From: an uncultured virus (IMG/VR IMGVR_UViG_2663762966_000001)
Lineage: Duplodnaviria; Heunggongvirae; Uroviricota; Caudoviricetes
Virus record (IMG/VR): IMGVR_UViG_2663762966_000001
Location: 1 to 64,000 of that record
Length of the DNA: 64,000 nt
Direction: 5' to 3' (one strand)
Positions 12,842 to 50,002 of this stretch are shown one piece after another (the first letter of the stretch is position 1; each line of letters starts with the position of its first letter). The position numbers were made by a program, and so were the translations under genes. The notes beneath the pieces were generated by a model, which saw only the letters and a list, made by a program, of their open reading frames with translations, did no database searches and had not been told where the DNA came from.

Positions 12842-15800
12842 TTACTTAATACCAATCCTCATTGCTAGATTTCCATTTGGGTAGAAAATCTGTGTAGATC
12901 CACCAGAAATAATTTGTTTACTTCCATCTGGAGCGACTGAAATAAATGTTCCGAAATTACCAGTGATGGAACTCAAACTATCAACATTTAATACTTCAGC
13001 AGTTAGTGATTTTGCTTTAAAGTTTGCAGCTGTTAGATTCTTAATAAAAACATCACTATTCATAATGACTTGATTGTCTTGGACTATGAACGGCATGTAT
13101 TTAGTAGAAGAAGAACCTGTTGTGAAGAAAATTCTATCAGCTTGGAAACCTATAGAAGTTTGGACAGTTCCATTATTTTGTTCACTTACCATGGATAAAC
13201 CAGAGAAAACACCGTTGTTATCCATTCCCATTACGTATTTACCTTTCATCCCGTTGATCAAATCAACTTGAGACTTAAGATTAATTGCATTTGGCCCATA
13301 TACTGAAGTGAGAGTTTGAAGTGAACCAGCGTAAGCTCCTACATCCGTGGTATATGTAGTTTTAAAACTCTCAAATTCAGCAATATTGTCTGCATCTTCA
13401 ATATCAATGTAATCTAGATCTACTTCGCCTGCTTGAGCTGCATAATTGCCGATAAAAACAGGAGTAAAGAAAGCTGCTTTATTTGCGAATGTTTTTGGAT
13501 TAGTAAGTGTTCCAGCACCACTACTTGCACCAGCAGACCTACCCTTGAAATACGCAACACCAGTAACCCAAGAACCCAATGCAGGTGCAGCGCCTCCAAC
13601 CACATAATGACTTGAGCCAATATCTCCATTTATGTAATTCGCATCTGTAATAAATGCAGATTTTGCGGCATTAAAACAGGTGGCCCCCACATAAACGACA
13701 CCAGCACCTGACACCCTTCTGTAGCGGTATTTAATCCGGTACATCTTATTATCATCAATTGGTAAGGTAGAGAACCAGTTTAGCCAGATTTCATCGTTGC
13801 CAGAATTATCTCCCATTCGTAATGCATAACCACCACGACAAGTTTGATCTTCAATTAAACGCATACCTATTCTTGAGCCGCTAGGCGTTCTAATAATCCA
13901 ATCTTTCTCAAAAGTTTGCAAAGCAGACGCCATAATGGTTTGGCTATTTGCTGAATAGAGGGCTGATAATCGTTCATTGGATGAAGCAACTGCCTCATTC
14001 AATTTTGAAGAAGTCACATAATCTCTTTGTATGTCAGCAACTGTTCTAGATGCTGCAGCAGCTGTGTCTTGAGCTTTTACAATTTCTGCAAAAATTGGTA
14101 CTGGTACAAGTGACGAATTATATTGAATTGGTTCAATAGATTGTCCCAAAGCTGTGAAAGACTCAGTTTTAATAAGTGGTGTAATCGTTTTATAGTGTGA
14201 AATATCATATCTCGCCCCACCCCGTAAAAAGACAGTTTCAATTGAAGAGTTAGGCATTTGCTTAATATTTATTAAAGGTGATTGTGCAGTCCAGCTAAAA
14301 GAGAACTTATCAATAATTCTATTTTCTGCTTGAGTACCCCATCCATTGGCGGTAACACTCCATTCACAATTAAGACCGAAAGAGCGTGTACCATGTGTAG
14401 CCCAAGGCACATTACTATTATTTTGGCCGCCTAAAGTACAAAATACTTTAAAATCATACTTTTGCTTACCGGTAGCCAACTGAAAGATAACAGGATAGTA
14501 AATATCTGGATTCAAACCTGATAAGTCAACATTCGTTAAAATATTTTCTTTTAAGCTTTCAGTATTTTTCTGTAATGGATCAATATATTCCGACTTTAAC
14601 TGATTTGACGATGCAGCAATTGCTCTTTCAATATTTGTATTTGTGAGGTCAGAATTAAGAATATATGCACTATTAGTTCTATCCAATTTAGAAGACATTT
14701 CAGTAAGCTTACTTGCCCATGTCTCCTTAAAATTAGTTAATGTCCCTAATGACTCGTTAGCTGTGGAAACGAAATCTTGTAAATTAGGATCTGCAGATGC
14801 ATAGTCAGTTACGTCATAACATTCAATTTGAGCTAAAGTCCAGATTAGAGGGCTTTCAGGTGTTGGGGCTGGTCCACCCGCTACATGTACGAATCCAGAA
14901 GTATCGAATCTTCCGGTGGCACCGGATTTAACCATACGAACATAAACTTCAAATCTCCCCGTCCCGTCAGTGCTACCAATGAATTTATCTACTGATCCAT
15001 CGCCCATTAAATTTGCTGCAGGATATAACTTGTAGCCGATAGGTAATTTAATCAGGTATTTAATGATAAAAATAGCATTTGAACGTGTGAAAAACTGTTG
15101 ATGAAAACCGCCGAAATTCGGGCTTGCTGAACCAGTTGTAACGATTCTAAGTTCATGAGTTGAAGTTGTCGGATTGTCAGCACTTTTAGCTTCACGAGTA
15201 ACACTAACTGTACCATTGCCTAGATTGTTATAAGTGCCGACGTTGTTCATTCCTTTCTTGAAATTTACATCACCGTAAAGCAACTTACCGTTAGTAATCA
15301 TCATTGCAAGCTTAGTTGTATTTTCTAATGCTGAACCCAGATTGTCGGTGCTTGTTTGGAGCTGAGTAATATCATTATTACGAAGATTAATTAAATCTTT
15401 TGATGTTTGATCCGCTGCTGCTTTAGTAGTTTTTAATACCGTTGAAAGTCCACCTGGCACTGAAGCATCATATTGCTGAATTTGTTGTGCAATAACACCT
15501 TTGTTAACATCAGCATTGATAAATGTATCTTCCACAAATTTCGCATTTTGTTTAAGAGTAGTTTTAAAGCCTCCTTTGAAATTAGGAGCAGAATTTCCTC
15601 GGCTAATGAAAATATTCGAAACTGAAAATGTGCCCGCTGAAGGAGCATTATCAAATCGTAAACCCAGAGGAACAAATTCAAAATTCGTAGCTTTTACATC
15701 ACTTGGAAAAATCCCCGTTAATTCTAATTCTCCACTTGCTTGAACAGTAAATAATGGTAAACCAAGCCCATATACCGCGCCGTGAAATTGGATGGTACAA

Positions 15801-18800
15801 ACTGCACCAATTAGACCTGCCGAAGCATTATATTTGATTCGTATAACTACAGGATCACCTTTAGCGATTGGTAGTTCTTTAATTTTATATTGTAGTTCCC
15901 AGACTGGAAAAGTTTGATTTGTGCCTGTTGAAACATTTAATGTTTTGGTTTCATCTCCTAATAAAATCCAATTGTCTTCTGCGTATTGAATAGTATCCAG
16001 TTTTGCTGAAAAGGATTTTATTTCTTCTGCAAATACTTCTTTTGCATCAGATCGAGTAATTTTTTGTTGAAGAATTTGAGCATGATTTTCTAAAACTTTT
16101 TGCAAGTTTCCACTGTTATTTGCCAAACCTAGAGGAATGCCACTAACGACCTGAACAGCAACCATTATCTGTTTTGCACCATTCAGACCAGAATCAGGAG
16201 TTGCATGGAGCTCAATACCTCTTCCAGCCCCAATTCCTTTCTGACCAATTAGGATATATGCATCCCTTCCCGTAATCTGATCAAGAGTAAATTGATTTGC
16301 ACCTAATGAAAGTAACGCAGCTTTAACTGTGTTTAAATTCATAGCAATGTAATCATAATTTGTGATTATCACAAAAGTATCTTTAGGTATTTCATTAATA
16401 GCATTACTCATGGCAACGGCGTTTGCAGGGTCACCATATGTGTCATATCGAGTTGAAGTTGCAATCGAGCCATCTGCTGCTAAAACATGCACAGAAAAGC
16501 CGCGGTTAGAAGCTACAGATATAGTCTCACCTTTTAAGTTCTTGATTCCAGTAAAATCATTATTCCAGCCTGAAGAATAAACTCTGTAATTAAAGACTTG
16601 TCCTAGATCTTGATTTAACTGCTTGTAATTAGAATCTAAGCTATTAATTGATTGGGTTATATTTTGTTGATTATCACTAATTGTAGAGTTTATTTCCTGA
16701 AACTTCCCATCAACTGTTAATTTATTCGTATCAACAGTTGATTTAAGAGTTGTATAATTTTCAGTTAGTACTTGGATCTTTTCTAAATTTTTCTGAACAT
16801 CTGTTTTAGTACCTATAATTGCTAATGAGTTAGCTTCTAAACCTTTCTCAATTTCACGAGGATTTTTTCTAAATCCTGTTGCTAACTCGCCTTTCTCTAA
16901 TTGAACTTCACGAATTAAGAAATCAGGAGCATACCCTACTTGAGCACATAGGATAATATTAATATATTGTAAGTTATTGATATTTGTGTCAAAATTATAA
17001 GTACATAATACTTCTTTATCTGTTGCAATATTCCATTCATTAACAACCTGGTTATTACCGGTACCATCATATCTATGGATGATTAAAAGCAAAGTTTTTT
17101 GTGCTGCAGTTAGAGCTTTGGCTTTAAGTGACAACGTATAGGTTTGATTTATTTCTAAACCATCAGCTATCGTAATTGACTCTATAAAACCTTTAAAATA
17201 AGTAGACGAATTCGTAGAGCGGAATCTCCCCCAGTTTGCGCCATAAGCATCCTTAAAAACTTCTAGAACATTACCTTCAACAACAGCATTCTGACGCCAG
17301 TTAGAGATTGAAAAAGGCGCATAGAAATCACCATTCTTGATTAAATTGTCTCCACCACTAGACGAGATTGTTGCTTTTAGAATTTTACTTTCTTCAGCAA
17401 TAGCTTTATTTGTTTCTGCTTTTGTATAACGGGTGCTATCCAGTGTTGCTGAACTATCTGTCCATAAATTTCCGAACTTCTGCTTAAATTTTGCTTCCAA
17501 TGCATCTGTAGCTGTGGCAACAGCTTTATTTGTGTCAGCAGTAGTCGAATAATTTTGTAGTTGTGTAGCGCGAACAAGAGATGTGTCTACATCTTTGTCT
17601 GTTAAAACGCTATTTACCCGATAAGCTTGTAACTCCCACCAACCGCCACTGCCATTGTGTCCAAGTGCAAAACCTAACTTCATTTGTGGATGAGTATTAA
17701 AAGTTACAACCTGTTCGATATATACCCATTCTTCGTTTGCTGGAATTCTATTTAAAGCAATCACAGATGCAGTGATTGTAGCATTTGAAAAACTACCATC
17801 AGCTTTGCCATACATAGCCGTAATGCTGCAATCACCTGTAGAATCTGCACTTCGGCGGACCCAAAAGCTAACTTTATATGAACGATTTGTCGGTAAAGCT
17901 TTACGGCTATATATCCAACATCCTGCTTGATTCGAAGAATCTTTTCTAAAGACAGTATTGCCAACTTTACCTGTATTAGTTGTTTTAAAGTGGATTTTCA
18001 AATCATAACTATAGTAATTAATCCAATCTTCAGGGTTTTTTAAATTAAAATCTGGCAGTAATGAGTCACTATCATTAGCAGATTCAATAGATGCTTTAAC
18101 ATTTTTAATTTGAGCATTAAGCTGATTAGTTTGATTTGCTGTAGCTTCGTCTAACTTTGCTGTGGTTGCATAGTTCTGCAGTGCTTTTGCGGTGTTATCG
18201 ATATTTTTTTCAGCATTTGAAAGTCCAGTTTCAAGACTTGATGTTCTCTTTGTTAGTGCCTCCTTTTCAGTCACATATGTTTGTTTGAAATCATTAAAGT
18301 TTGCATTAACTTGGTCTACTGCAGCGTTGTAGTCATAAGCACTGGGGATCCACGATTCAGTAGTGATTAAGTCACCCCTGACAAGCACTGCCCAATAAAC
18401 CGTTCCGACTGAACCTTGAGCAGCAGTAGGACTGTTAATCATGTAAAAATTTAAAGCACGTTTTTCAATAACTTGATTATTTTTAACAAAGGTTATTTTA
18501 TTAATAACTTTGCCATTTGTATTAACAACGGATTGTAAGGCTTGCTGACCTCCCCCAGCATAAACTGCCAAATTAGAGTTTGTATCCGCACCATTTCTTT
18601 GATGTTCGGCACACCACATTAAAGTGTATTTTGCGCCTACCTCCCAATCCTCGCCTAGCTTATATGAAAGATGAGGATATGAAGTTCCGTTATATTTACC
18701 CACAACATTTGACTGGATAAGCAAATTCGAACCAGCAGCTGCGGCTCTACTCAAACTTGCAGAGAGTGCTGTTGCTTGCTCTGTAACTGCTTTAATCTGT

Positions 18801-21800
18801 CCAGCTTGTTCTGTTACATCTGATTTCGTTGCTTCCAATGCTTCTGATGAAGCCTTTTTATTTACTTCATTATTAGTTAAATTTAGATCATTTCTAAGCT
18901 TAGAAATATCTAAACTTTGAGAAGACAATGTTTCGCCGTGCTTCTTAACTTCCGCTTGAGTGATCTTAATCGCTTCTGCATTAGCATTTAATGAGCTTTG
19001 CGTATCCCGAGGGCTTGGGCTCCATGCTGTAGGTTTATTGCCGGCTTCGATCTGTAATTTTTGAATTGTTGGAATTCGGCCTGAGCCATATGTACCGTAA
19101 AACTCAATTGTAGATTCAGTTGAACTGCCAGTGTTAAATTTAGGAAAAACCGTCACTGCAAATTTTTGAAATTCATTTGCTTTAGTTACTGTAACTGAAG
19201 TTGTGAAAAAGTGGGCAGAACCATTAGATGAGTAAACCTGAACCGAACCGGCAACAGGTACACTCACTTCAAATGAAATGGTAACCGGCTTATCTAAGTT
19301 TTCGTCATAAAAAACTTTTAACTCTTTGCTTCGTTCATACATTAAGTATTCACGACTTGTTGTAGCTGTCGATGTTCTAGGAGCTTCTGAATTAGCAACA
19401 GCATTAACACCACCGATTTTTAAATTATCTACAGCAGCTGTTATATCAGTCGATACACGGCCCATTGCACTTTCGAGATCACTCTTTGTAGCTGTTTTCA
19501 ATAAAGCTTGAGCATTGCTCTGAATACCTGTTTCTGCATTCTGCATTCTTGTTTCAAGCTTACTGGTCCTTTCAGCTTCAGCTTCTGTTCTGTTAGTTGC
19601 TGTTTTGAATAAATCATTTGCTGTTGCAGTTGCATCATTAGCTGAAGCTAATGAGTTGTTATCTTCAACAATAATGTAATTAAGCTGACAAATTCCTGTC
19701 TGGAAGTTGTAGTTTGCAATAAAGATTGGGGCATAAAATTCAGCTTGCGCGGGGAAAGTACGCGGATTATCAATTGTCCCTAAGCCAGTTGCTGCCCCAG
19801 TAGACTTACCCTTCATGTATAGAACTACTTCTTGCCACTCACCTAAATTAGGTTTAATGGCCGACAATAAGTAGTTAGAAGAACCCATATCTTCTGCAAG
19901 GGTGTTTGTAGTCGTTACGTATTTACTTTGGTCTGCATTTTTACATGCAACACCAAGATAAATAGATCCATTTTCACCGAGTACACGGCGGAAACGTGCA
20001 CGAACCCGATAAAGTGTATCTGGGTTAATCTTTACAAACTCATTCCAATGAACCCATGTTTCATCATTATCAGCATTATTCCCAAGCTCAAGAATATAAC
20101 CACCTAGTGCATCAGAATCTTGAATTACTTTCGCTTCTGCAGTGGTACGCCAACGTGTCCAGTCATCAATACCTTTTGTTGTGACGACTGCACGTACCCC
20201 AGAAGTTACTTGAGTTTGAGATTTTAGACTTAATAAATTTTGAGAAAGGGCTTCGGTAGCTTTTACCGCCGTTGTTCCTGTTTGCTGCGCTTCTGCTGCA
20301 TTATCAAAAGCCAGTTTTGCAAGATCATCAGTAGTTTTAAGTGATGATGAAAGGCCATTTATGCTTGTATTTGTATTACTTTCTAAGGTCGAAACACTTT
20401 TTTGAACATCAGTAATTTGCCCTTGTACCTTTAAGTTTTCTTTAGAGATACTTGTATCAAGTTCACTAAATTTTGAAGCAGTAGACTGTTCCAACTCGGT
20501 AAGTGACTCAGTAACTTCTAAAATATTTGCATTAGATTTCCGATCAGCTTCTTCCAAAGCTGCTTTCGTTTGGTCGATACGTAAAGATAAGGCTTTATCA
20601 CCATCAGAAACTGATTGAGTAATTGTTGCTATATCCGACTCTGTTTTAGTTTTATTCGAATTAAAGTCAGTTTTTAGATCTTCAAGTTTTTTTGCTTCTG
20701 AAACAACCTTCTCATCAACAAGTTTCACTGAAGATTCTACTTTTTCGATGTTTGCGGCATTACCTTCTATTTGTTCTTGTGAGTTTTTAAGAGTAGATTC
20801 AATTTGTGAGGTTTTCTCAGCAATAGATTGATTCAAATCACTTACAGTACGTTCGACTTTGTTAATAGCAGTTTTGTTGTCACCAATTTGTGATTGTGCG
20901 GTGCTAATTTGCTCAGTAAACGCTTTATCTTGAGCTGCTAGAGTTTTTATATCTTCTGAAATTAGAGCGTTTGACTTACCGAATTCGTTTTGCATTTCAG
21001 CAAACTTAAGCTCAAAACTTTGAGTTAAAGCCTCTTTATCATTTGCACGTGCTTCAGCTTCAGCTAGAAAACCAGAATCAACTTTCTTATCAAGATCAAT
21101 ATACTGAGCTGCAATTTGATCTACTTTTTTAACTGCAGCTTCAGTTTGGGTTACAACCGGTTCAATTTTTTGATTAATGAGTGTATTAGTTTCTTCACCT
21201 AATGCTAATTTAGCGTCATCAATCATTTGACCAGCTTTAACTAAGTTTTGATCAATGTCTTGTTTTAAGGCGGCCTTAGTTTGATCAATAACATTTAGTG
21301 TGTCAGCTGCTTGTTTTTTACGGTCCAGAACTTCTTGATCCGCAATTTTTTTTGCGTTTTCTGCGACTAACCGAATTTCATTTGAATCACTTCTTACATC
21401 AGCAATGATTGAATCTGTTTCACTTTTAATAAAACCGATTTTATCATCGAGTTCTTTCTCAGCACGAATTGCACGTTGTTGAGCATCAGCAACCAATGCT
21501 TCATTAGCTTGAATAGACTGATCGATACGTTGATTGGCTTCATCCAATCGTAGATTAGCCTCATTATTATGTTGATCTACAATTAATTTAGTATTATTTA
21601 TTTCTTGATCTATATAAGCACGAACTTCATCGACTTTATTTTGAGCGATCTGATTAACTTCTTTAACTTGTTCATGAATCTTTTGAACTTCCTCATCAAA
21701 ATGTTTCATTCCTTCTTCAAGCAATTTAAAAGCATCAGAATCTTTAATATTTTCTATTAATTCTTCTACTTCCTTTATTTTTTCATCAATCTCTTGGCTT

Positions 21801-22411
21801 ACTTGATCTTTAGTTTCATCAATTTTTTCGCCTTGTTCTTTTAACTCTTCCTTTAAACTTTCTAATTTATTAAGAGCATCTTTAAATGCACCCTCAATAG
21901 CTTTAGGGTCAATAGGCACACCTGCAACCGTAAGCGTTGTGCCAACTGCCATACTACCCGCTACAGCACTATTGCCCGCAACTGAAGTATTACCCACTAC
22001 AGTGCTATTTCCCGTTAATGTGCTATTACCAGTTTGTTGAGTATTAGCTTGTACATTCATTAACGGCGTTTTGATCGAAACGGTTGTGCCAGAATCTACT
22101 TTTAAATTTTCTTTAGAGATAAATTCAATATTGTCTTGTCGAATACGGCGCACACCTACAATCGCGCCGTCTCCGTGACTGACATAACTATGGATTACTG
22201 GACGTTCTTCATTACCATTTTCAAAGAAGACATAGACGTCTTCCCCATCCACAATTTGAATTTCTGTATCTAAATCACTATCGCCGACTGGATAAGCAAA
22301 AGTTGCTGTAATTCCTTCACTCGCGCCATCAGTTAAACCATGAATGTGTACTTGTGCAGTACGACCTTTTGCGTTGTAACTTAAAATCTTTGCACGTTTT
22401 AAACCATTCAT
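12842..22411 (-). CDS. Giant (3189 aa) baseplate spike / central fibre chimera
   Basis: N-terminal gpV-like region with beta-helix repeats (GNSTLTGNSTVVGNTSV); long coiled coils; several carbohydrate-binding-like modules; ILEI-like domain; DUF1983/J-like C-terminus (FQADRIFF..PFIVQDNQVIMNSDVFI). Confidence 0.75.
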   Translation of the reverse strand: MNGLKRAKILSYNAKGRTAQVHIHGLTDGASEGITATFAYPVGDSDLDTEIQIVDGEDVYVFFENGNEERPVIHSYVSHGDGAIVGVRRIRQDNIEFISKENLKVDSGTTVSIKTPLMNVQANTQQTGNSTLTGNSTVVGNTSVAGNSAVAGSMAVGTTLTVAGVPIDPKAIEGAFKDALNKLESLKEELKEQGEKIDETKDQVSQEIDEKIKEVEELIENIKDSDAFKLLEEGMKHFDEEVQKIHEQVKEVNQIAQNKVDEVRAYIDQEINNTKLIVDQHNNEANLRLDEANQRIDQSIQANEALVADAQQRAIRAEKELDDKIGFIKSETDSIIADVRSDSNEIRLVAENAKKIADQEVLDRKKQAADTLNVIDQTKAALKQDIDQNLVKAGQMIDDAKLALGEETNTLINQKIEPVVTQTEAAVKKVDQIAAQYIDLDKKVDSGFLAEAEARANDKEALTQSFELKFAEMQNEFGKSNALISEDIKTLAAQDKAFTEQISTAQSQIGDNKTAINKVERTVSDLNQSIAEKTSQIESTLKNSQEQIEGNAANIEKVESSVKLVDEKVVSEAKKLEDLKTDFNSNKTKTESDIATITQSVSDGDKALSLRIDQTKAALEEADRKSNANILEVTESLTELEQSTASKFSELDTSISKENLKVQGQITDVQKSVSTLESNTNTSINGLSSSLKTTDDLAKLAFDNAAEAQQTGTTAVKATEALSQNLLSLKSQTQVTSGVRAVVTTKGIDDWTRWRTTAEAKVIQDSDALGGYILELGNNADNDETWVHWNEFVKINPDTLYRVRARFRRVLGENGSIYLGVACKNADQSKYVTTTNTLAEDMGSSNYLLSAIKPNLGEWQEVVLYMKGKSTGAATGLGTIDNPRTFPAQAEFYAPIFIANYNFQTGICQLNYIIVEDNNSLASANDATATANDLFKTATNRTEAEAERTSKLETRMQNAETGIQSNAQALLKTATKSDLESAMGRVSTDITAAVDNLKIGGVNAVANSEAPRTSTATTSREYLMYERSKELKVFYDENLDKPVTISFEVSVPVAGSVQVYSSNGSAHFFTTSVTVTKANEFQKFAVTVFPKFNTGSSTESTIEFYGTYGSGRIPTIQKLQIEAGNKPTAWSPSPRDTQSSLNANAEAIKITQAEVKKHGETLSSQSLDISKLRNDLNLTNNEVNKKASSEALEATKSDVTEQAGQIKAVTEQATALSASLSRAAAAGSNLLIQSNVVGKYNGTSYPHLSYKLGEDWEVGAKYTLMWCAEHQRNGADTNSNLAVYAGGGQQALQSVVNTNGKVINKITFVKNNQVIEKRALNFYMINSPTAAQGSVGTVYWAVLVRGDLITTESWIPSAYDYNAAVDQVNANFNDFKQTYVTEKEALTKRTSSLETGLSNAEKNIDNTAKALQNYATTAKLDEATANQTNQLNAQIKNVKASIESANDSDSLLPDFNLKNPEDWINYYSYDLKIHFKTTNTGKVGNTVFRKDSSNQAGCWIYSRKALPTNRSYKVSFWVRRSADSTGDCSITAMYGKADGSFSNATITASVIALNRIPANEEWVYIEQVVTFNTHPQMKLGFALGHNGSGGWWELQAYRVNSVLTDKDVDTSLVRATQLQNYSTTADTNKAVATATDALEAKFKQKFGNLWTDSSATLDSTRYTKAETNKAIAEESKILKATISSSGGDNLIKNGDFYAPFSISNWRQNAVVEGNVLEVFKDAYGANWGRFRSTNSSTYFKGFIESITIADGLEINQTYTLSLKAKALTAAQKTLLLIIHRYDGTGNNQVVNEWNIATDKEVLCTYNFDTNINNLQYINIILCAQVGYAPDFLIREVQLEKGELATGFRKNPREIEKGLEANSLAIIGTKTDVQKNLEKIQVLTENYTTLKSTVDTNKLTVDGKFQEINSTISDNQQNITQSINSLDSNYKQLNQDLGQVFNYRVYSSGWNNDFTGIKNLKGETISVASNRGFSVHVLAADGSIATSTRYDTYGDPANAVAMSNAINEIPKDTFVIITNYDYIAMNLNTVKAALLSLGANQFTLDQITGRDAYILIGQKGIGAGRGIELHATPDSGLNGAKQIMVAVQVVSGIPLGLANNSGNLQKVLENHAQILQQKITRSDAKEVFAEEIKSFSAKLDTIQYAEDNWILLGDETKTLNVSTGTNQTFPVWELQYKIKELPIAKGDPVVIRIKYNASAGLIGAVCTIQFHGAVYGLGLPLFTVQASGELELTGIFPSDVKATNFEFVPLGLRFDNAPSAGTFSVSNIFISRGNSAPNFKGGFKTTLKQNAKFVEDTFINADVNKGVIAQQIQQYDASVPGGLSTVLKTTKAAADQTSKDLINLRNNDITQLQTSTDNLGSALENTTKLAMMITNGKLLYGDVNFKKGMNNVGTYNNLGNGTVSVTREAKSADNPTTSTHELRIVTTGSASPNFGGFHQQFFTRSNAIFIIKYLIKLPIGYKLYPAANLMGDGSVDKFIGSTDGTGRFEVYVRMVKSGATGRFDTSGFVHVAGGPAPTPESPLIWTLAQIECYDVTDYASADPNLQDFVSTANESLGTLTNFKETWASKLTEMSSKLDRTNSAYILNSDLTNTNIERAIAASSNQLKSEYIDPLQKNTESLKENILTNVDLSGLNPDIYYPVIFQLATGKQKYDFKVFCTLGGQNNSNVPWATHGTRSFGLNCEWSVTANGWGTQAENRIIDKFSFSWTAQSPLINIKQMPNSSIETVFLRGGARYDISHYKTITPLIKTESFTALGQSIEPIQYNSSLVPVPIFAEIVKAQDTAAAASRTVADIQRDYVTSSKLNEAVASSNERLSALYSANSQTIMASALQTFEKDWIIRTPSGSRIGMRLIEDQTCRGGYALRMGDNSGNDEIWLNWFSTLPIDDNKMYRIKYRYRRVSGAGVVYVGATCFNAAKSAFITDANYINGDIGSSHYVVGGAAPALGSWVTGVAYFKGRSAGASSGAGTLTNPKTFANKAAFFTPVFIGNYAAQAGEVDLDYIDIEDADNIAEFESFKTTYTTDVGAYAGSLQTLTSVYGPNAINLKSQVDLINGMKGKYVMGMDNNGVFSGLSMVSEQNNGTVQTSIGFQADRIFFTTGSSSTKYMPFIVQDNQVIMNSDVFIKNLTAANFKAKSLTAEVLNVDSLSSITGNFGTFISVAPDGSKQIISGGSTQIFYPNGNLAMRIGIK

Positions 22412-43696: not shown

Positions 43697-44006
43697 CTGT
43701 TACTGATTTACCCAATCGGTCTGCTACTTGGTTAAGATCTATATTCACATTCATGATGCTTAAATGAATATGAACCGTCTCAAATCCTTCGGTTTGTGAA
43801 TACAGGGCTAATTGGTCAGAGTTAAGCTCAGATAATATTGGTAGATCCTTTTTCATCTTAATAAGAAAACTATCTGCCACCCTCGAGTCTAAAGGTGCCA
43901 TTAGCAAATCATAAAGAGGTGCACCAAAGTCAGAACCATACTTCCCATTAACCGGATGATTAAGCCAGTACTCAACCATGTCTAAAATTGTTTTAGATGT
44001 GATCAT
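43668..44006 (-). CDS. Baseplate gp25/W-like protein
   Basis: WL..P.NG.YGSDFG..L..LL motif upstream of the J-like gene. Confidence 0.6.
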   Translation of the reverse strand: MITSKTILDMVEYWLNHPVNGKYGSDFGAPLYDLLMAPLDSRVADSFLIKMKKDLPILSELNSDQLALYSQTEGFETVHIHLSIMNVNIDLNQVADRLGKSVTGETYDINAS

Positions 44007-44362
44007 TAGGAAGTTGCTCTATTACTGAAAATCATCAAAAGCTTTACTAGTATTGCAGTGCCGATCTGGTAAGTTGAAAAAATGGTGAAATAGATTATGA
44101 ATATCCATAATGAAACGCTTAATGCATCAAAATATGAAGCAACGTTATAGATTCGCCAATCAACAAGAATAATAGTGATCAATACACATGCCATACTTAT
44201 GAAATACATATATCTGATTTCTTTAAATAAGAGGCTTATAGGCACATGACGGAATTGTTTAATATACGCAGCTTTATTCTTGCTATTCCATCCTGTAACA
44301 ACGGAAAGATAAGCTAAAAATGCAAGAATTAAGACAATATCAATACCGATTTGAATTTGCAT
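44006..44362 (-). CDS. 3-TM membrane protein (holin-like?)
   Basis: Start reassigned to MQIQIG (44362) by promoter motif at 44427-44432 and RBS; three hydrophobic helices. Confidence 0.5.
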   Translation of the reverse strand: MQIQIGIDIVLILAFLAYLSVVTGWNSKNKAAYIKQFRHVPISLLFKEIRYMYFISMACVLITIILVDWRIYNVASYFDALSVSLWIFIIYFTIFSTYQIGTAILVKLLMIFSNRATS

Positions 44363-44470
44363 AAAAAACACCCTTAATAAGAACTGTATTAAGGGTATTG
44401 CTTTTGTATATATGTAAGCGTGAATGGTTCCATATTTGAAAATAAGAAATGCATGGATTATTATATATAC

Positions 44471-44559
44471 AAAGCCCGCTCCACTTATGACACGAGAACG
44501 TATAGGGTCATAAGTGTAGGTTAGAAGATGTCGCAACCCATCTCTAACTACCGGGCTTT
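44471..44559 (-). ncRNA. Predicted three-way-junction structured RNA 3' of the nuclease-fusion gene
   Basis: Stems AAAGCCCG/CGGGCTTT, GTAGTTAGAGATG/CATCTTCTAACCTAC and CACTTATGAC/GTCATAAGTG. Confidence 0.5.
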
Positions 44560-44561
44560 TT

Positions 44562-45503
44562 TTAATGCACTTCAAAAGCTGTAAGCAGCCATGCATTACT
44601 ACCTTCTCGCTTAATCAATGACGCTTCATGCGAATTAAATACAATATTTATTCTTGTAGATAATCCACGTTCTGTACGCCGTTGTGTACTACCTTGAGCG
44701 ATTGTTTGCACAATAGTATCCACAAGCATATGCACAACTTCATCATATGTCATGCCATCACTTTCCATACGGCGCTTGATAATATGCTTAATACCCTGTT
44801 TATCACTGCCATACTCAAAATCCACCCAGCCTAAATCATTACGATACATAGCTCTATGCACTGTGGTTTTTTCCATAATGGCTTTGTTCATTGCAGCTTT
44901 ACCACGTGTGATATTTGCTGTAACTGATTTGATTGGACTCGCACTATCAAATTCAGGCTTTCCCAGTTCGGATTGACCAGCCTCCGAACTTATACCAAGT
45001 TGTTGCTTAGCATGTTCAATTTGTTCCTTCAGTTGGTCACGCTGAGCGGTTTGTTTTGCTAAATCTTCATCTAGCTTTTGTTCTTGTTCTTGTACTTCTT
45101 TAATTTTCTGATCTACAGAAGTACGGCGCGGCGGCAAACTGACTTTATCCCGTTTATTTTGTTCTTGAATCTTTGATTGTGCTTCACGGATAAGTTTAGC
45201 TACACAACTCACGGCGTTTTCAAATGTTGGCTTATAGTCATCACTAAAATCTCCTGATAGCACAATTACTTTGTCGTTCAGTTCGGCCTTGACCACATCT
45301 GCTAAAGCACGAACATAAAGTGTTAGCGTAGCGCCACCTGAAAAGAAAAATGCAACTGGTAAAACGCTAACACCAGCAACACGCTTAATTTTGCGAAATT
45401 CTGGTGTAACAATCGTTTGGCCTGTTGCTTTTTCTAATGCCGATTGGATCTTTTTAATGTATGGAGTAGTAGCTGTTATAGCTGCTAGATTAAGACTGCC
45501 CAT
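44562..45503 (-). CDS. Hdf/DarA-N-like head protein fused to a phage BECR (barnase/RelE-like) nuclease domain
   Basis: KRVAGVS...F..G..L.L.V....D.....LN.K N-domain; coiled coil; MYRNDLGWVDF.YG....GIKHII.RR...WLLTAFE C-domain. Confidence 0.6.
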   Translation of the reverse strand: MGSLNLAAITATTPYIKKIQSALEKATGQTIVTPEFRKIKRVAGVSVLPVAFFFSGGATLTLYVRALADVVKAELNDKVIVLSGDFSDDYKPTFENAVSCVAKLIREAQSKIQEQNKRDKVSLPPRRTSVDQKIKEVQEQEQKLDEDLAKQTAQRDQLKEQIEHAKQQLGISSEAGQSELGKPEFDSASPIKSVTANITRGKAAMNKAIMEKTTVHRAMYRNDLGWVDFEYGSDKQGIKHIIKRRMESDGMTYDEVVHMLVDTIVQTIAQGSTQRRTERGLSTRINIVFNSHEASLIKREGSNAWLLTAFEVH

Positions 45504-45627
45504 GAAAAATAACCTCATATTAATGAGGTTATCTTGTAAGTAAATTTTTTCTAGAAATTACATAAGTTCCATTAAATTTCATTTTGTTTATAAATAAAAA
45601 CCTGCATTTGCAGGCTTTTATTTTAAA

Positions 45628-46335
45628 TTAATTAGAAGTTAATTTATTTCGGACGTTCGTTAAACTATGTTGAAACATTTGTAAACCTAATTCAGTAGAA
45701 ATTTTGACAGGTTCACCATGGTGATATGTTTCAGTGTTAGCGTGATATGTGTTGCCATTTCCAACAAGATGATTTGTTTCAGCAATCTCTGTTTGCAACA
45801 TTTGTATTTGATTATTAAGAGTTGTAGACATGATAGGCGCTTCCAAATTATGAACTTCTTCTCGTTTAATACTGCAATATTTTACTTCCCCTGCAGTATA
45901 TTGATCGTATTTAATAGCTTCTAGGACAACAGCTATCGCATTAGGACAATCATGAATAATATGCTGAGTATGAAAACTCCCCGATCCAATTACAGTAGGA
46001 ACATTAGTAATGTTTTCTATTGTAAACTCAGTGTCATTTACCATTTTAGAAACTTTAAGGCAAGAACCACTTAAATAGATTAGTGCAATAAAATCACTAT
46101 TTGTTTTTTCAAGTATAGATCTCGGAAGCTCAAATTGTGTTTTATTTTGTAAGATAAAATCAATAAGGGCCTCGCTAAAATCTCTCATACAAAATAAACA
46201 TCCAGCCATACCAAATACAATATCGCCCAAACGTTTCACTTTCCTAAAAGGAATATTTAGAGTAACTTCTGTACGATTTACTGTAAAGGCTATGTCGGAA
46301 GCCATGAAATGAGTATCATAAGCTGTTGTTGTCAT
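45628..46335 (-). CDS. Moron with proteasome-beta/HslV-like Ntn-hydrolase motifs
   Basis: M-TTTAY....ASD...KV......GMAG...IGSGS...AIKYD.YT.G; AT-rich; own terminator. Confidence 0.55.
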   Translation of the reverse strand: MTTTAYDTHFMASDIAFTVNRTEVTLNIPFRKVKRLGDIVFGMAGCLFCMRDFSEALIDFILQNKTQFELPRSILEKTNSDFIALIYLSGSCLKVSKMVNDTEFTIENITNVPTVIGSGSFHTQHIIHDCPNAIAVVLEAIKYDQYTAGEVKYCSIKREEVHNLEAPIMSTTLNNQIQMLQTEIAETNHLVGNGNTYHANTETYHHGEPVKISTELGLQMFQHSLTNVRNKLTSN

Positions 46336-46457
46336 TAACATAATCCTTAAAACGCGCGCGAATTATGCATTTATGAATAATATTTTTCAAGAACTATATG
46401 ATCAATTACATTGGAAATATCAATAAAATTAAGAATTTTCTCTGTACACGACAAATT

Positions 46458-47548
46458 TCACAGAACCCTTATCCTATCAGGGTTCTGCCTTCTTAAAATT
46501 GCCAAAATTTCCTTAAACTCTTCTTTTTTCCCAAAACCAATTAAACGCTGAATCGCCATTTGAACATAGTCTAAACCATAGCGAAATAAACTCATTGAGA
46601 GTCGTCCATGCTTCTTTATTTTTATCGCTTTTTTTTGATCATGTTGCCATTCACCCGTTAAGTAACACCAACAGAAGCTTATAGCTAACACCGCAATCAA
46701 TTTTTTCACTCGTCTAGGGTCTGTCAAGCGCGTATTTTCAAGATTAAACCCGCGTCCTTTGAGACAACTGAATAAGGTTTCAATTTCCCAGCGTAATGCA
46801 TAATCCTGAATAGCATTGGCATTAAACTGAGGAGAAACGACGAGTAAAAGCTCTCCATTTTCTAACTGTAGTGCACTTATATATAGTTTCACCCGACCAA
46901 CCAAAATCCGTCGTTTACGACATTCAATTTGACCAACTTTAAGATGGCGAAATAAATCACTAATTTTATGATTCTTTCCTAAATGATTGGTGACAATGAA
47001 GTTTTTTTAACACGAATGCAGAAGTTGATGTCTTGTTCAATTAACCATGTAAACCACTGCTCACCGATAAACTCTCTGTCTGCGAACACATTCACAATAC
47101 GGTCTTTACCAAAAATGGCTATAAAGCGTTGAATCAAAGCAATACGCTCTTTCGTATCTGAATTTCCACGTTTATTAAGCAATGTCCAAAGGATAGGTAT
47201 CGCTATTCCACGATAAACGATTGCGAGCATCAGGATATTAATATTTCGTTTTCCCCATTTCCAATTGGTTCTATCTAAAGTCAGTTGCACTTGGTCGAAT
47301 GAAAACATATTGAAAATCAACTGAGAAATTTGACGATAATCAAAATACTGACCTGCAAAGAAGCGCTGCATACGTCGATAAAATGATTGTGGTAAGCACT
47401 TGATGGGCAAGGCTTTAGATGCAGAAGAAAGATTACATGTTTGCTTTAAAATAATCACAAGCATGATGAGCGCAAAGCACTTTAAATGTGACTTGTTCCA
47501 TTTTAGATATTTGTTTAAGATAAGATATAACTCATTGAGATGTGTCAT
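46458..47548 (-). CDS. tnpA: ISAba1 transposase (two ORFs joined by a frameshift at the A7 run near 47002-47008)
   Basis: MTHLNELYLIL..., LDRTNW, ADREF, Y..RW.IE motifs. Confidence 0.9.
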
Positions 47549-47559
47549 AGTATTCGTCG

Positions 47560-47587
47560 TTAGAAAACAATTATTATGACATTATTT
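47560..47587 (+). promoter_or_regulatory. ISAba1 outward promoter
   Basis: TTAGAA-N16-TTATTT pointing at the integrase. Confidence 0.85.
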
Positions 47588-47609
47588 CAATGAGTTATCT
47601 ATTTTTGTC

Positions 47610-48740
47610 GTGTACAGAGGTATTGAAATTAAACCTAATGGAAAGAAGTATTGGCGCTATCGTTTCCAGTGGCTTAAGAAAACTCAAATGATGAGTTTAG
47701 GTGAGTACCCTATTATTGGCTTGGCCGAAGCACGTACAAAACGAGATGAGGCTAAATCATTAGTAGCAAGTGGTATAAATCCAGTCGAAGAAAAAGAAAA
47801 CCAAAAAAAGGCTAAATCTGATGAGTATGAAAATAGAGTTCTCTTTAAACATGTTGCTGCAGAATATAAAGCTGAAAAATTAAATAATCGTTCAGAGAGA
47901 TACCAGGAAGCTTTTCAACGCGCCCTAGATAAAGATATTTTAAAAGTTATTGGCGATAAGGATATTAAAGAAGTCACCTCAGCAGACGTTTTGACAATTA
48001 TGAAAAAGACGATTGCACGAGTTAAGCGTCAAAAAAACCATGGTACCGGAGAAGTATCAGCAATCCAAAATCGTACTTTTATTGGTGGTGTTATGCGATA
48101 TGCAATCGCAACACTTAGAGCTGACTATGACCCAACGTATGCAGTTAAAAACGTTGTTGAGCGTCCTGAAATAGAACATGCCAGACCAATGAAAAAACAT
48201 GAAGCTGTGCAACTCAGGAATAAATTAAATAGTTATGGTGGATCTACTACAGTTAAAAATGCTGGTCTTGTAATGCTCTACTCAATGCTTAGGACTATCG
48301 AGATCCGTCGCATGAAATGGGAATATGTCGATTTTGAAGAAAGAACAATCACCTTTCCAAAAGAGATGATGAAAAAGAAACGTATTCATATCGTTCCTAT
48401 GTCCGATCAAGTTTTTAATATTCTTCAAGAGCAACGCAATATTGTTGGAAATCGTGAATATGTTTTCCCAGCAATTTATCAAGATGGAATGCTCTCAGCT
48501 ACTACATTGAACAAAATGCTTGATTATATTGGTTTGTCTGATGTAACAGCCCATGATTTTCGCGCTACAGCATCCACATTACTAAATGAAAAAGATTACG
48601 ATGATAAATGGATTGAAAAGCAATTGGCCCACGCAGATGGTAATAAAACCAGAGCTACATATAACCATGCAAAGTATTTAGAAAGCAGACGCAAGATGTT
48701 GCAAGACTGGGCCGATATTGTTGATAGTTGGGCAGACTAA
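47610..48740 (+). CDS. int: Tyrosine integrase (P4-like), 5'-truncated by ISAba1
   Basis: Partial arm-binding domain; catalytic R..K..HDFR..LAH..Y residues intact; first codons come from the IS end. Confidence 0.85.
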   Translation: MYRGIEIKPNGKKYWRYRFQWLKKTQMMSLGEYPIIGLAEARTKRDEAKSLVASGINPVEEKENQKKAKSDEYENRVLFKHVAAEYKAEKLNNRSERYQEAFQRALDKDILKVIGDKDIKEVTSADVLTIMKKTIARVKRQKNHGTGEVSAIQNRTFIGGVMRYAIATLRADYDPTYAVKNVVERPEIEHARPMKKHEAVQLRNKLNSYGGSTTVKNAGLVMLYSMLRTIEIRRMKWEYVDFEERTITFPKEMMKKKRIHIVPMSDQVFNILQEQRNIVGNREYVFPAIYQDGMLSATTLNKMLDYIGLSDVTAHDFRATASTLLNEKDYDDKWIEKQLAHADGNKTRATYNHAKYLESRRKMLQDWADIVDSWAD

Positions 48741-48949
48741 TAGTTTTGCTTCTTATCAAAGGTCCATCTTTTACTATTGTAAGTCACAGTGCCATCCAAA
48801 TTAATCGGCAACTCTTTTAATGAGTAGTCATAGATTTTAAGAACATTCCCATACTTATCTAAATCAGCGGGTAGATTACAAGTATTCTCCATCCTTCCCG
48901 CTTCCGAAACCATGATCATGACTTGCGACATCACAAAGCCCTTACACAA
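48737..48949 (-). CDS. Small hypothetical prophage protein
   Basis: 70-aa ORF converging on int. Confidence 0.5.
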   Translation of the reverse strand: MCKGFVMSQVMIMVSEAGRMENTCNLPADLDKYGNVLKIYDYSLKELPINLDGTVTYNSKRWTFDKKQNY

Positions 48950-49055
48950 ATCGAGATGTTCACATTACTATTAATAGTGTGAGCTGTGCAACCTGAGAAG
49001 ATTAAACACAGCAATGTGATGATCGATGCAGCTTTGGTACGTTTGCACATATAAG

Positions 49056-49610
49056 TTACTTCTTTAAAAAGAGTGCTAGTTCAGCTTCTCGGCGACGAAC
49101 TAGGCCCTTCATAACTTTGCCACCTGCTTTGTTCCAAACTAGGAATTGATCGGCAGCGCCTTGATAGTCACCTTTATTAAGCAACTTAAGCAATGTTGAA
49201 CCCTTAAAAGCACCTGAGCCAATGTTATAAGTCAGTGATACCAAAGCATCAAATTGATTTTGATTTATCGGCACAGTCACCGATTCATTTACAGTTTTTT
49301 CAAATTTAGCCAAGTAGTGCTTAAAGTAAGTCTTGGCTTGTTCTGCTGTACAAGTATCGCCCTTCTTGACCTTCACGCCATTTGGATAAACTGTGGTGCC
49401 AGTGCCAATGGTCCAGACTCCTACACCATCGTCATAAGCTGTGAATCGAGTGCCTTCAAATCCTGAGATTAGATCTACACCAACATCACTTGTAGTCATG
49501 CCAGAAGGTGCAAGTTTATCGACCACCTTATTTAGATCATCTACTTGTGCTTGTGTAAGCTTGCCACCTGCAATGACACGAGCAGCATCGAAGAAGTTTT
49601 TAACTGTCAT
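49056..49610 (-). CDS. Endolysin, GH24 lysozyme
   Basis: FEG....AY.D.VGVWTIG.G...QNQFDALVS..YNIG...GLVRRR..E. Confidence 0.92.
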   Translation of the reverse strand: MTVKNFFDAARVIAGGKLTQAQVDDLNKVVDKLAPSGMTTSDVGVDLISGFEGTRFTAYDDGVGVWTIGTGTTVYPNGVKVKKGDTCTAEQAKTYFKHYLAKFEKTVNESVTVPINQNQFDALVSLTYNIGSGAFKGSTLLKLLNKGDYQGAADQFLVWNKAGGKVMKGLVRRREAELALFLKK

Positions 49611-50002
49611 GGTCCACCACCTGTAATATCATTCTTAGCCTTCTTAACTTCTTTAATTACTTCGACAATCGTCTTACCTTCTTGTTTATCAATGAAGTTG
49701 AAGATCCATCTGACTAAAGCCCAACCGGGTAAACCACAAACAAAGAAAAATCCACCTAATGCAGTCATCCCCCATATATCTGTAACCCACTCATGAAGTC
49801 CCCACTTCACAATAATGAATGAACCCCCTGCCAAACTCGATACAACCGTACAAATCATCCCAACAGCCCACTCTCTCGGTGAACGTGGCATGCGTGTCAT
49901 CATCACAACCATTGCAACCAATGCGATTGCAAGCGTAATCATGATTGCAGCACCGTAAAATTTTAAAAGTGCTGTAAAACCGCTAGTGGAAACTGGTTCC
50001 AT
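49607..50002 (-). CDS. Holin-like membrane protein
   Basis: Three TM segments; overlaps the endolysin start. Confidence 0.7.
   Translation of the reverse strand: MEPVSTSGFTALLKFYGAAIMITLAIALVAMVVMMTRMPRSPREWAVGMICTVVSSLAGGSFIIVKWGLHEWVTDIWGMTALGGFFFVCGLPGWALVRWIFNFIDKQEGKTIVEVIKEVKKAKNDITGGGP

Follow-up and report, generated by a model that had tools for sequence, protein, structure and literature searches.

Short antisense RNAs that run convergently against the 3' end region of the gene under their control are known from lambda OOP RNA, RatA/TxpA and SR4/BsrG. A comparable arrangement is proposed here for an uncultured virus of the class Caudoviricetes (IMG/VR record IMGVR_UViG_2663762966_000001, 88,625 bp), whose first 64,000 nucleotides (nt) are the stretch of DNA that was analysed and are called the window below. 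In this window, a gene for a 313-residue protein with an Hdf-like domain, a coiled coil and a C-terminal PBECR1 domain, a phage RNase domain of the BECR fold, is followed by a three-way junction of 89 nt. We put at about even the chance that this junction is the local form of a PBECR1-linked module, and that the module is an opposite-strand antisense RNA gene regulating or neutralising the RNase.

The PBECR1 family and the association of DarA-N/Hdf domains with phage heads were described by Iyer, Burroughs, Anand, de Souza and Aravind in 2017 (PMC5512222), and the main text of that paper places phosphoribosyltransferase and ADP-ribosyltransferase domains among the modules of polyvalent proteins. 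The Hdf-PBECR1 architecture fits the polyvalent and head-protein theme developed there. A full-text literature search found this paper as the sole one naming PBECR1. A nucleic-acid module is absent from its main text, which contains none of the terms 'antisense', 'noncoding', 'linker' or 'immunity protein' and uses 'hairpin' for proteins only, and no description of a PBECR1-linked RNA element was found in the main texts, titles and abstracts searched. Enzymes reach the host with polyvalent and with head-packaged phage proteins, which poses the question of how a phage or its lysogen is protected from its own RNase cargo. If a single toxin domain family came with a conserved RNA module of its own, this question would gain an answer open to experiment.

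The three-way junction and the Hdf-PBECR1 gene

The Hdf-like/coiled-coil/PBECR1 gene occupies 44562..45503 on the minus strand, called the gene strand here, with its stop codon TAA at 44562-44564 and an open reading frame (ORF) that remains open up to an ATG at 45518. As the preliminary description had stated, a nested structure of 89 nt begins 2 nt past this stop codon (44471..44559), and both its position and its folding were confirmed. The outer stem (AAAGCCCG/CGGGCTTT) pairs 44552-44559 with 44471-44478 and encloses hairpin 1, at about 44517-44551 with two single-base bulges, and hairpin 2, at 44482-44516 with a perfect 10-bp stem and a 15-nt loop. The gene-strand fold of the 111 nt from 44460 to 44570 has a minimum free energy of -37.3 kcal/mol (z -4.40), and the opposite-strand fold of the same segment one of -34.4 (z -4.75). 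The predicted 96-nt plus-strand transcript discussed below reaches -33.9 (z -5.2), and in each of the three cases 0 of 200 shuffles were as good. Features of a terminator are found on the plus strand, where T7 directly adjoins CGGGC; after the stem, the gene strand offers only TTTGTAT. A simple terminator scan omitted the CGGGC/T7 signal because its 'loop' amounts to 73 nt.

The closest phage relative is the temperate Acinetobacter baumannii myophage vB_AbaM_ABMM1 (ABMM1), with 98.5% identity across 91% of 43900-45700, and further close relatives are a 62-kb circular A. baumannii plasmid-like record and four more plasmid-collection records. ABMM1 is a ready experimental system, since it is the only one among the phage records of the searched collection that has the module.

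PHROG 6398 covers the 313-residue protein at full length from residue 6, and RefSeq gives the gene 942 nt in the plasmid relative. The N-terminal carrier, an Hdf-like (DarA-N-type) domain with the coiled coil, is encoded at 44967..45500 (-) and matches phrog_1620, 'Hdf-like antirestriction', over residues 7-184 (E 3.4e-31). The Pfam DarA_N score is 15.9 bits, under the 27-bit cut-off, and the Hdf/DarA-N label first given to this domain is tentative. The middle of the protein shows weak coiled-coil-type matches only. By the precedent of Hdf/DarA, the protein would be delivered with the virion.

The C-terminal domain was probably rightly taken to be a BECR-type RNase. It is encoded at 44571..44852 (-) and matches Pfam PF18809 (PBECR1) over residues 223-316 with 46.1 bits (cut-off 27.6; E 7.6e-12). 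The family histidine (GIKHIIKRR) and the asparagine of GSNAW are both invariant in 25 of 25 aligned PBECR1 sequences including that of the window, and a threonine follows in NAWLLTAF; a conserved helix histidine and a C-terminal threonine or serine are stated as PBECR1 features in the main text of Iyer et al. 2017 (PMC5512222). The AlphaFold model of the domain has a predicted local distance difference test score (pLDDT) of 92. Its best structural matches are all BECR-type toxins, led by CdiA-CT 7m5f_C (Z 6.3, root-mean-square deviation 4.3, 94 aligned) and followed by 6cp9_A (Z 5.6), 7vmc_B (5.3) and the colicin D tRNase domain 5znm_B (5.0), then BrnT, RelE, ParE and YoeB, at scores that are modest throughout (Z <8; best Foldseek E-value 3.3e-3). 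The ABMM1 record labels the gene 'tetratricopeptide repeat protein', and the ABMM1 paper (PMC10345192), as far as its available text goes, reports liquid chromatography-tandem mass spectrometry of a few bands, does not name the Hdf-PBECR1 protein and does not mention the gene.

Linkage and selection within the phage lineage

The lineage was compared over 77 related loci, comprising 74 viral, 1 genomic and 2 annotated records; individual loci are cited by L numbers. The 101-nt element is present at 99-100% identity in 65 of the 77 and absent from 12. In these 12 element-free loci, the Hdf gene lacks an intact PBECR1 end, nine having another or a cut-short C-terminus and three a PBECR1 that is cut short. 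Locus L074 holds the PBECR1 part alone, with different DNA on both flanks, and retains the element. An exact match to a 31-mer from hairpin 1 was found in 62 viral stretches, in all 62 with PBECR1 adjoining it.

Nucleotide diversity was calculated for the 63 loci that span gene and spacer, representing 36 haplotypes, after 14 non-spanning loci had been dropped. The junction has a diversity of 0.003, with 4 of 89 columns variable. The PBECR1 coding part has 0.022 (third codon positions 0.05; 68 of 369 columns variable), and the next 71 nt, which form the spacer, 0.032 (11 of 71 columns variable). Because junction diversity lies far below that of the neighbouring DNA, the whole junction is constrained beyond the needs of a terminator, in agreement with the preliminary remark that the structure exceeds them.

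In sister phages (L066-L076, gene from 3001), the Hdf-like N-domain is constant and the C-terminus is swapped, with the joint after QSELGK. One alternative allele encodes 441-443 residues and is followed by a 65-residue ORF and a plain terminator; the other encodes 467-468 residues and is followed by a plain terminator. The shorter allele has a weak PDB sequence match to 'PAAR repeat-containing protein' chains 6dre/6drh (E 0.0012), which we take to be an ADP-ribosyltransferase effector, and the longer one a weak Pribosyltran match (E 0.03, below the cut-off), so that both domain names are tentative. The C-termini of the alternative alleles gave no Pfam match at E<=0.01, and the 65-residue ORF after the 443-residue allele gave no Pfam family match. 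The PBECR1 allele, for its part, brings no allele-specific protein gene, only the structured element.

A conserved core behind distant PBECR1 domains

An exhaustive protein search found 357 PBECR1 library representatives at E<=1e-3, the best 150 of which are mostly internal parts of proteins of 2,000-5,000 residues, and 42 viral and 29 metagenome loci were fetched as a distant set. PF18809 itself is rare in genomes of the class, with 2 of 400 scored genomes positive and one more unscorable.

A conserved core, homologous to elements behind other PBECR1 domains, occupies 44470..44524 (-) in the window (core proper 44476-44520) and consists of CCTACAC, the 10-bp stem, the 15-nt loop and GGAGC. 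In gene-strand letters, the consensus runs from CCTACRC through a stem of 9-10 bp, a 15-nt loop that starts YCTAY and ends CGT, and the second stem arm to G(G/T)(A/T)GC, a 3' flank that is abbreviated as GGRGC. Its orientation is fixed, and it sits 35-52 nt past the last PBECR1 codon. The core is present wherever an intact PBECR1 ends at most 5 residues from the stop codon, namely in L171/L172, L175/L176, L178, L181, L292, L295/L296 and the window, and L302, L315, L339 and L327, which are lineages with solo genes, have it behind the stop codon. No core was found in L286, where a partial PBECR1 match is followed by 1 residue. The core is retained in at least 11 untranslated lineages; relatives of L181 were sought in viral contigs, and none were found.

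The stems differ among lineages yet stay complementary. In an alignment of six copies (A6), 7 of the 9 pairs changed on both sides, and 94% of the stem cells pair, against 63% in shuffles and 39-56% with the partner slid. A covariance model built from six copies of other lineages, the window being excluded (R1), has one significant match in the 64-kb window, at 44470-44524 (-), with 28.7 bits and E 2e-5; the next match has 8.1 bits. In the 77 distant PBECR1 sources, some of which are duplicates of one contig, R1 finds a match just 3' of the domain in 45 at E<=0.01 and in 54 at E<=0.1, and it matches 0 of 12 loci without an intact PBECR1 C-terminus. An unbiased DNA pattern scan of the viral collection returned 54 distinct matches. 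Among the 21 with at least 7 of 9 stem pairs, PBECR1 lies upstream in 20 and ends 35-52 nt away (132-144 nt for a second tandem copy); 31 of the other 33 have no PBECR1, and the remaining two are a longer-spacer variant of the element. The tests that the preliminary description had proposed, co-occurrence with nuclease homologues and covariation, thus came out in favour of a linked structured element, and as to the third, a non-nuclease fold, the domain model resembles BECR-fold RNase toxins. Its picture of a three-way-junction RNA has to be narrowed. Hairpin 1 and the outer stem are not conserved beyond the window's lineage, and the conserved unit is hairpin 2 with its flanks only.

The exception among the 21 well-paired matches of the pattern scan is an orphan core in L313 (reverse strand, about 679-734), which scores 51 bits with the model R2 described below, has no PBECR1 within 700 nt upstream and is accompanied by a downstream motif as in the L171 group. 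The solo PBECR1 genes of L315 (701-850) and L339 (696-845) have two tandem units of ~95 nt after the stop codon, each consisting of a first hairpin, whose stem differs between the units and is still complementary, and then the core hairpin. In L171, a PemK/MazF-type toxin gene (2138-2509, -; Pfam E 1e-17) lies just past the element, convergent to the solo PBECR1 gene.

Several other identities of the element were considered and rejected. Rfam covariance models gave 0 matches at the gathering score in the window, none on the element at E<=10 and none on the elements of L181, L292 and L295 at E<=1, and neither transfer RNA nor transfer-messenger RNA was found in the window. A weak Rfam int-alpA match in L295 (689-766, +) reaches 26 bits against a gathering score of 35.8 and lies just downstream of the element. 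A repeat or mobile element is contradicted by the single copy in the 88,625-bp record and, among phage records, by its presence only in ABMM1. A small peptide on the plus-strand RNA was also dismissed, as the 8-codon ATG frame in hairpin 2 of the window has no start codon at that place in other lineages. Recoding or read-through would not suit a motif whose frame relative to the gene varies, being +1 in L171, L175, L181 and L292, 0 in L178, and +2 in L295 and the window. Finally, the loop of the window, read on the opposite strand, looks like a conserved ribosomal RNA loop, a likeness that other lineages do not share. The CCTACG motif may in turn resemble the anticodon loop of a transfer RNA cut by colicin D.

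Copies of the core inside giant reading frames

In most R1-positive sources, PBECR1 is flanked on either side by 500 or more codons of open reading frame. A second covariance model (R2) was built solely from 32 distant-locus copies, nearly all of them in long ORFs. R2 scores the window core at 38.4 bits, adds L141/L144/L182, L155, L157, L169 and L275, and matches 0 of the 12 loci without an intact PBECR1 C-terminus; it found no match in L179, L180, L270, L279, L280 and L286, nor in L283 and L294, which are cut by contig ends. Over the 32 copies, 85% of the stem cells pair, compared with 52% in shuffles and 26-43% with slid partners, and 8 of the 9 pairs changed on both sides.

In the ORFs, the core is read as a linker peptide, P-T-(H/Q)-x-x-P-T-x-x-R-x-x-x-G-A. 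Codons were counted in the 29 of 32 copies that are open in the frame of this peptide, all of them copies found by a model that rewards these very letters. Codon 1 is NCT in 28 of 29 despite changes of the residue (P 18, A 5, S 4, T 2), whereas T has a background share of 22% at third positions. ACG stands at codon 2 in 25 of 29 (background 25%), and codon 6 is NCT in 27 of 29. Codons 3 and 13 covary, CAC occurring with GTG, CAT with ATG and CAG with CTG, and in one lineage the first motif is translated in another frame. Judged by these codons, the constraint on the ORF copies appears to act on the nucleotides, with synonymous sites fixed, and overprinting on the coding sequence would be strong enough both to fix such sites and to make amino acids covary.

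The presence of the same core in frame inside giant polyvalent proteins means that it is not simply a 3' appendage. The loop of the window is identical to that of an ORF-internal copy in L167/L352, and hairpin 1 of the window aligns with the coding sequence there; the untranslated junction of the window is therefore a derivative of linker-coding DNA.

A promoter-like site on the opposite strand

Opposite the gene, a sigma-70-like promoter, TTGAAA-17-TATTAT, is predicted at 44436..44464 (+) with 10 of 12 consensus matches. Its -10 box ends 7 nt ahead of the first outer-stem base, which coincides with the predicted start at about 44471. From this start, a predicted antisense small RNA of ~96 nt (44471..44566, +) would comprise the junction and then U7 (44560-44566), its 3' end overlapping the stop codon. 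In the 36 haplotypes, 0 of the 11 variable spacer columns fall in the hexamers or in 44465-44470, and 5 lie between the hexamers (hypergeometric estimate, p ~0.03). Two polymorphisms of the outer stem, at 44476 and 44472, give G.U pairs on the plus strand and A.C on the gene strand.

Similar sites are found in other lineages. The independent, AT-rich L181 has TTGACT-16-TAAAAT with a TG extension (10 of 12) right past the terminator of a convergent gene; the predicted start is again the first base of its own outer stem, and the predicted antisense RNA folds as a three-way junction. L292 and L295 have TTGCAA-16-TATACT at the same offset. A scan covered 51 distinct copies (the 32 of the ORF-internal set, 14 untranslated copies and 5 of the ORF copies from the pattern scan). 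A site was counted if each hexamer had 3 or more matches, both together reached 9 of 12 or better, and the -10 box had its A2 and T6. An opposite-strand site with the -10 box ending 26-32 nt beyond the loop is present in 17 of the 51 (12, 4 and 1 by class), the rate elsewhere within +-300 nt being 0.29 per 7-nt window, and a gene-strand site in the fixed-offset window was found in 0 of 51. The promoter region lies outside the models R1 and R2. Inside ORFs, the -10 position reads A(G/A/C)T in 17 of 31 copies. Serine at this position is encoded by AGT in 9 cases and by AGC in 1, against background shares of 19% and 26% of serine codons, and this holds in DNA of 70% G+C.

Neighbouring genes and other features

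The next gene, for a 118-residue protein, lies at 44006-44362 (-) and starts at ATG 44362 in the RefSeq plasmid relative. In the ABMM1 GenBank record, the same gene is given 196 residues (window 44006-44596, -; L001 5109-5699), starting inside the PBECR1 gene and spanning the three-way junction; this annotation is probably an over-extension that hides the element. Hairpins ending in a T-run stand directly before the start codons of both genes on the minus strand, at ~45509-45532 for the Hdf-PBECR1 gene and at 44367..44399 for the next gene, the latter hairpin being part of the allele-specific spacer and immediately preceding ATG 44362. Bases resembling a Shine-Dalgarno sequence sit in the 3' arm of both, with a covarying counterpart in other alleles, and these hairpins could serve translational or late-transcription control.

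Upstream of the Hdf gene, a variable region (45628-50002) is unlike both ABMM1 and the plasmid relative. It includes genes for an HslV-like peptidase family protein, two unknown proteins, an integrase (47610-48740, +) and an endolysin (49056-49610). A 1,276-residue protein encoded at 1446-5276 (-) combines helicase motifs of the ResIII/SNF2 type with a weak methyltransferase match; in this it resembles phage P1 DarB and would suit an Hdf/Dar-like set in this phage. At 12842-22411 (-), a 3,189-residue ORF with tail-tip-fibre, carbohydrate-binding and ILEI-type domains resembles a giant tail fibre and not a polyvalent protein, and no copy of the RNA core was found in it.

Proposed mechanism and alternative explanations

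In the antisense reading, host RNA polymerase would transcribe the opposite strand, and the conserved module would be the 5' part of a small RNA. In the window, this RNA of ~96 nt would start at ~44471 (+), stop at the U7 over the stop codon and be complementary, along its full length, to the 3' end region of the RNase message. Driven by a host-type promoter, it would be present in the lysogen and in early infection, when leaky RNase would harm host or phage, and the RNA would restrain the RNase, for instance in the lysogen or before packaging. The simplest mechanism would be pairing with the message; alternatively, the RNA may bind the RNase itself. A conserved binding partner is suggested by the loop and flank bases, since these are invariant in untranslated copies from Acinetobacter to high-G+C phages. 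That PBECR1 domains in general carry an RNA 'immunity', in the form of a co-inherited opposite-strand RNA that is encoded immediately behind the domain, also within giant injected proteins, and whose conserved loop and flanks bind and neutralise the RNase directly, is a rather doubtful extension of the antisense reading. If true, it would represent a new, non-repetitive, antisense-encoded and overprinted class of RNA antitoxin for a BECR-fold toxin, in place of protein immunity genes. The module would also count as a new family of structured RNA, and transcription units can then lie hidden at the domain boundaries of giant phage genes.

Several observations weigh against an antisense gene. In the promoter scan, two thirds of the copies stayed under 9 of 12; no site at the fixed offset was seen in L327 or in the L171/L175/L178/L313 group, and in L181 the outer stem is not followed by a U-run on the antisense strand. 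AT-rich DNA often contains promoter-like matches, and the 5 counted in 43900-45700 compare with 8.0 expected from shuffles. PBECR1 domains mostly lie within giant proteins, and an antisense start inside an ORF of this kind would be unusual; plain cis-antisense pairing also leaves the invariant loop and flank nucleotides unexplained. No transcript was seen: in RNA run X1, one contig of 4,117 nt (word depth 83) spans 43903-45699 and is uninformative on strand, ends and transcription. The locus itself is present in 14 public RNA runs from 6 studies. The RNA raw-read runs X19, X22 and X23 of the species have 0 reads on the region, from which it appears that these strains lack the prophage. Mismatch counts were discarded as proof of the antisense strand. 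ORF-internal stems have 23 A.C against 3 G.U, and 20 of the 23 fall at two pairs made up of second codon positions. A hydrophilic linker would itself favour A and C there, so the excess does not establish the strand; the untranslated copies, with about 4 A.C and 1 G.U counted by eye, are too few to decide it.

An alternative that we regard as somewhat unlikely places the element on the gene strand, in the 3' untranslated region or ORF of the PBECR1 message, where the hairpin would be bound or cleaved in cis by newly synthesised RNase and so serve as an autoregulatory element, a decoy or a cis antitoxin. The fixed orientation and the distance of 35-52 nt are in line with such an element, sense transcription is assured for the ORF-internal copies, and the fold is as good on the gene strand as on the opposite one. 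The two tandem ~95-nt units in the 3' untranslated regions of L315/L339 recall repeat antitoxin RNAs, and the invariant loop and flanks suggest a protein partner, PBECR1 being the sole constant neighbour. A cis element nevertheless leaves unexplained the fixed-offset promoter-like sites on the opposite strand and the AGT codon bias; U7 stands on the opposite strand while the gene strand has only TTTGTAT after the stem, and two outer-stem variants would be A.C mismatches on the gene strand. A convergent antisense RNA is preferred to a cis element because of the fixed-offset, promoter-like site on the opposite strand and the U7 of the window on the plus strand. The cis-encoded RNA partner of the preliminary description therefore survives in its linkage to PBECR1 and its covariation and gives way in its arrangement, and the idea of an RNA antitoxin stays alive in this changed form because PBECR1 is the only constant neighbour.

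Two further explanations dispense with a dedicated RNA. The element might act as DNA, either as a domain-boundary junction or hairpin for cassette exchange and polyvalent-protein mosaicism or as a single-stranded DNA hairpin in replication or transfer; this is improbable, although the element lies exactly at a module boundary, PBECR1 and element are swapped as a unit in the Hdf gene, and the window copy is homologous to giant-gene linker DNA, with a loop identical to that in L167/L352. Extensive module shuffling is described in the main text of Iyer et al. 2017 (PMC5512222). A covarying stem around a loop fixed at 15 nt, however, is not needed for recombination by homology, neither a recombinase nor a nickase is constantly found nearby, and the fixed-offset promoter-like site points to transcription. 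More improbable still is an over-built bidirectional terminator, left by a decaying linker-coding remnant and having no dedicated function. Sister alleles do have a simple terminator of A-run, GC-stem and T-run at the same place, the outer stem of the window is flanked by A7 and T-rich sequence, and the sequence is homologous to coding linkers. Against such a remnant stand a diversity about tenfold under that of the neighbouring DNA, with both inner hairpins included, and the retention of the core in at least 11 untranslated lineages, its motifs invariant and its stems covarying; in ORFs, where termination is unwanted, the core is also kept and constrains synonymous sites.

Comparison with known systems

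With the type III toxin-antitoxin (TA) systems ToxIN, CptIN and TenpIN, the locus shares an endoribonuclease gene adjoined by a structured RNA, and L315 and L339 have tandem units. The fold of the toxin, in contrast, matches CdiA-CT, colicin D and RelE-type proteins and not ToxN/AbiQ, and the window has a single copy of the RNA, placed downstream of the toxin instead of upstream behind a terminator and probably made from the other strand. The analogy to type III systems drawn in the preliminary description consequently fails, since the defining features of that class, a ToxN-type toxin and a repeat array upstream of it, are absent.

The locus also resembles polymorphic toxin cassettes, such as CdiA-CT/CdiI and the MuF-toxin phage proteins, in its constant Hdf-like carrier, its alternative C-termini and the downstream sequence that each allele has of its own. 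It differs from them in that the PBECR1 allele is accompanied by a structured element where an allele-specific protein gene would be expected. Type I toxins are small hydrophobic peptides, whereas the candidate here is a 313-residue protein of soluble type with an RNase domain. The closest likeness in arrangement is to OOP RNA and the 3'-overlapping type I antitoxins, with which the window shares, by prediction, a host-type promoter, an intrinsic terminator and complementarity to the 3' end of the target. It departs from these in its target, a BECR-fold RNase domain instead of cII or a small membrane peptide, and in the element itself, whose 5' hairpin has an invariant loop and flanks across distant phages and whose module also occurs inside giant ORFs.

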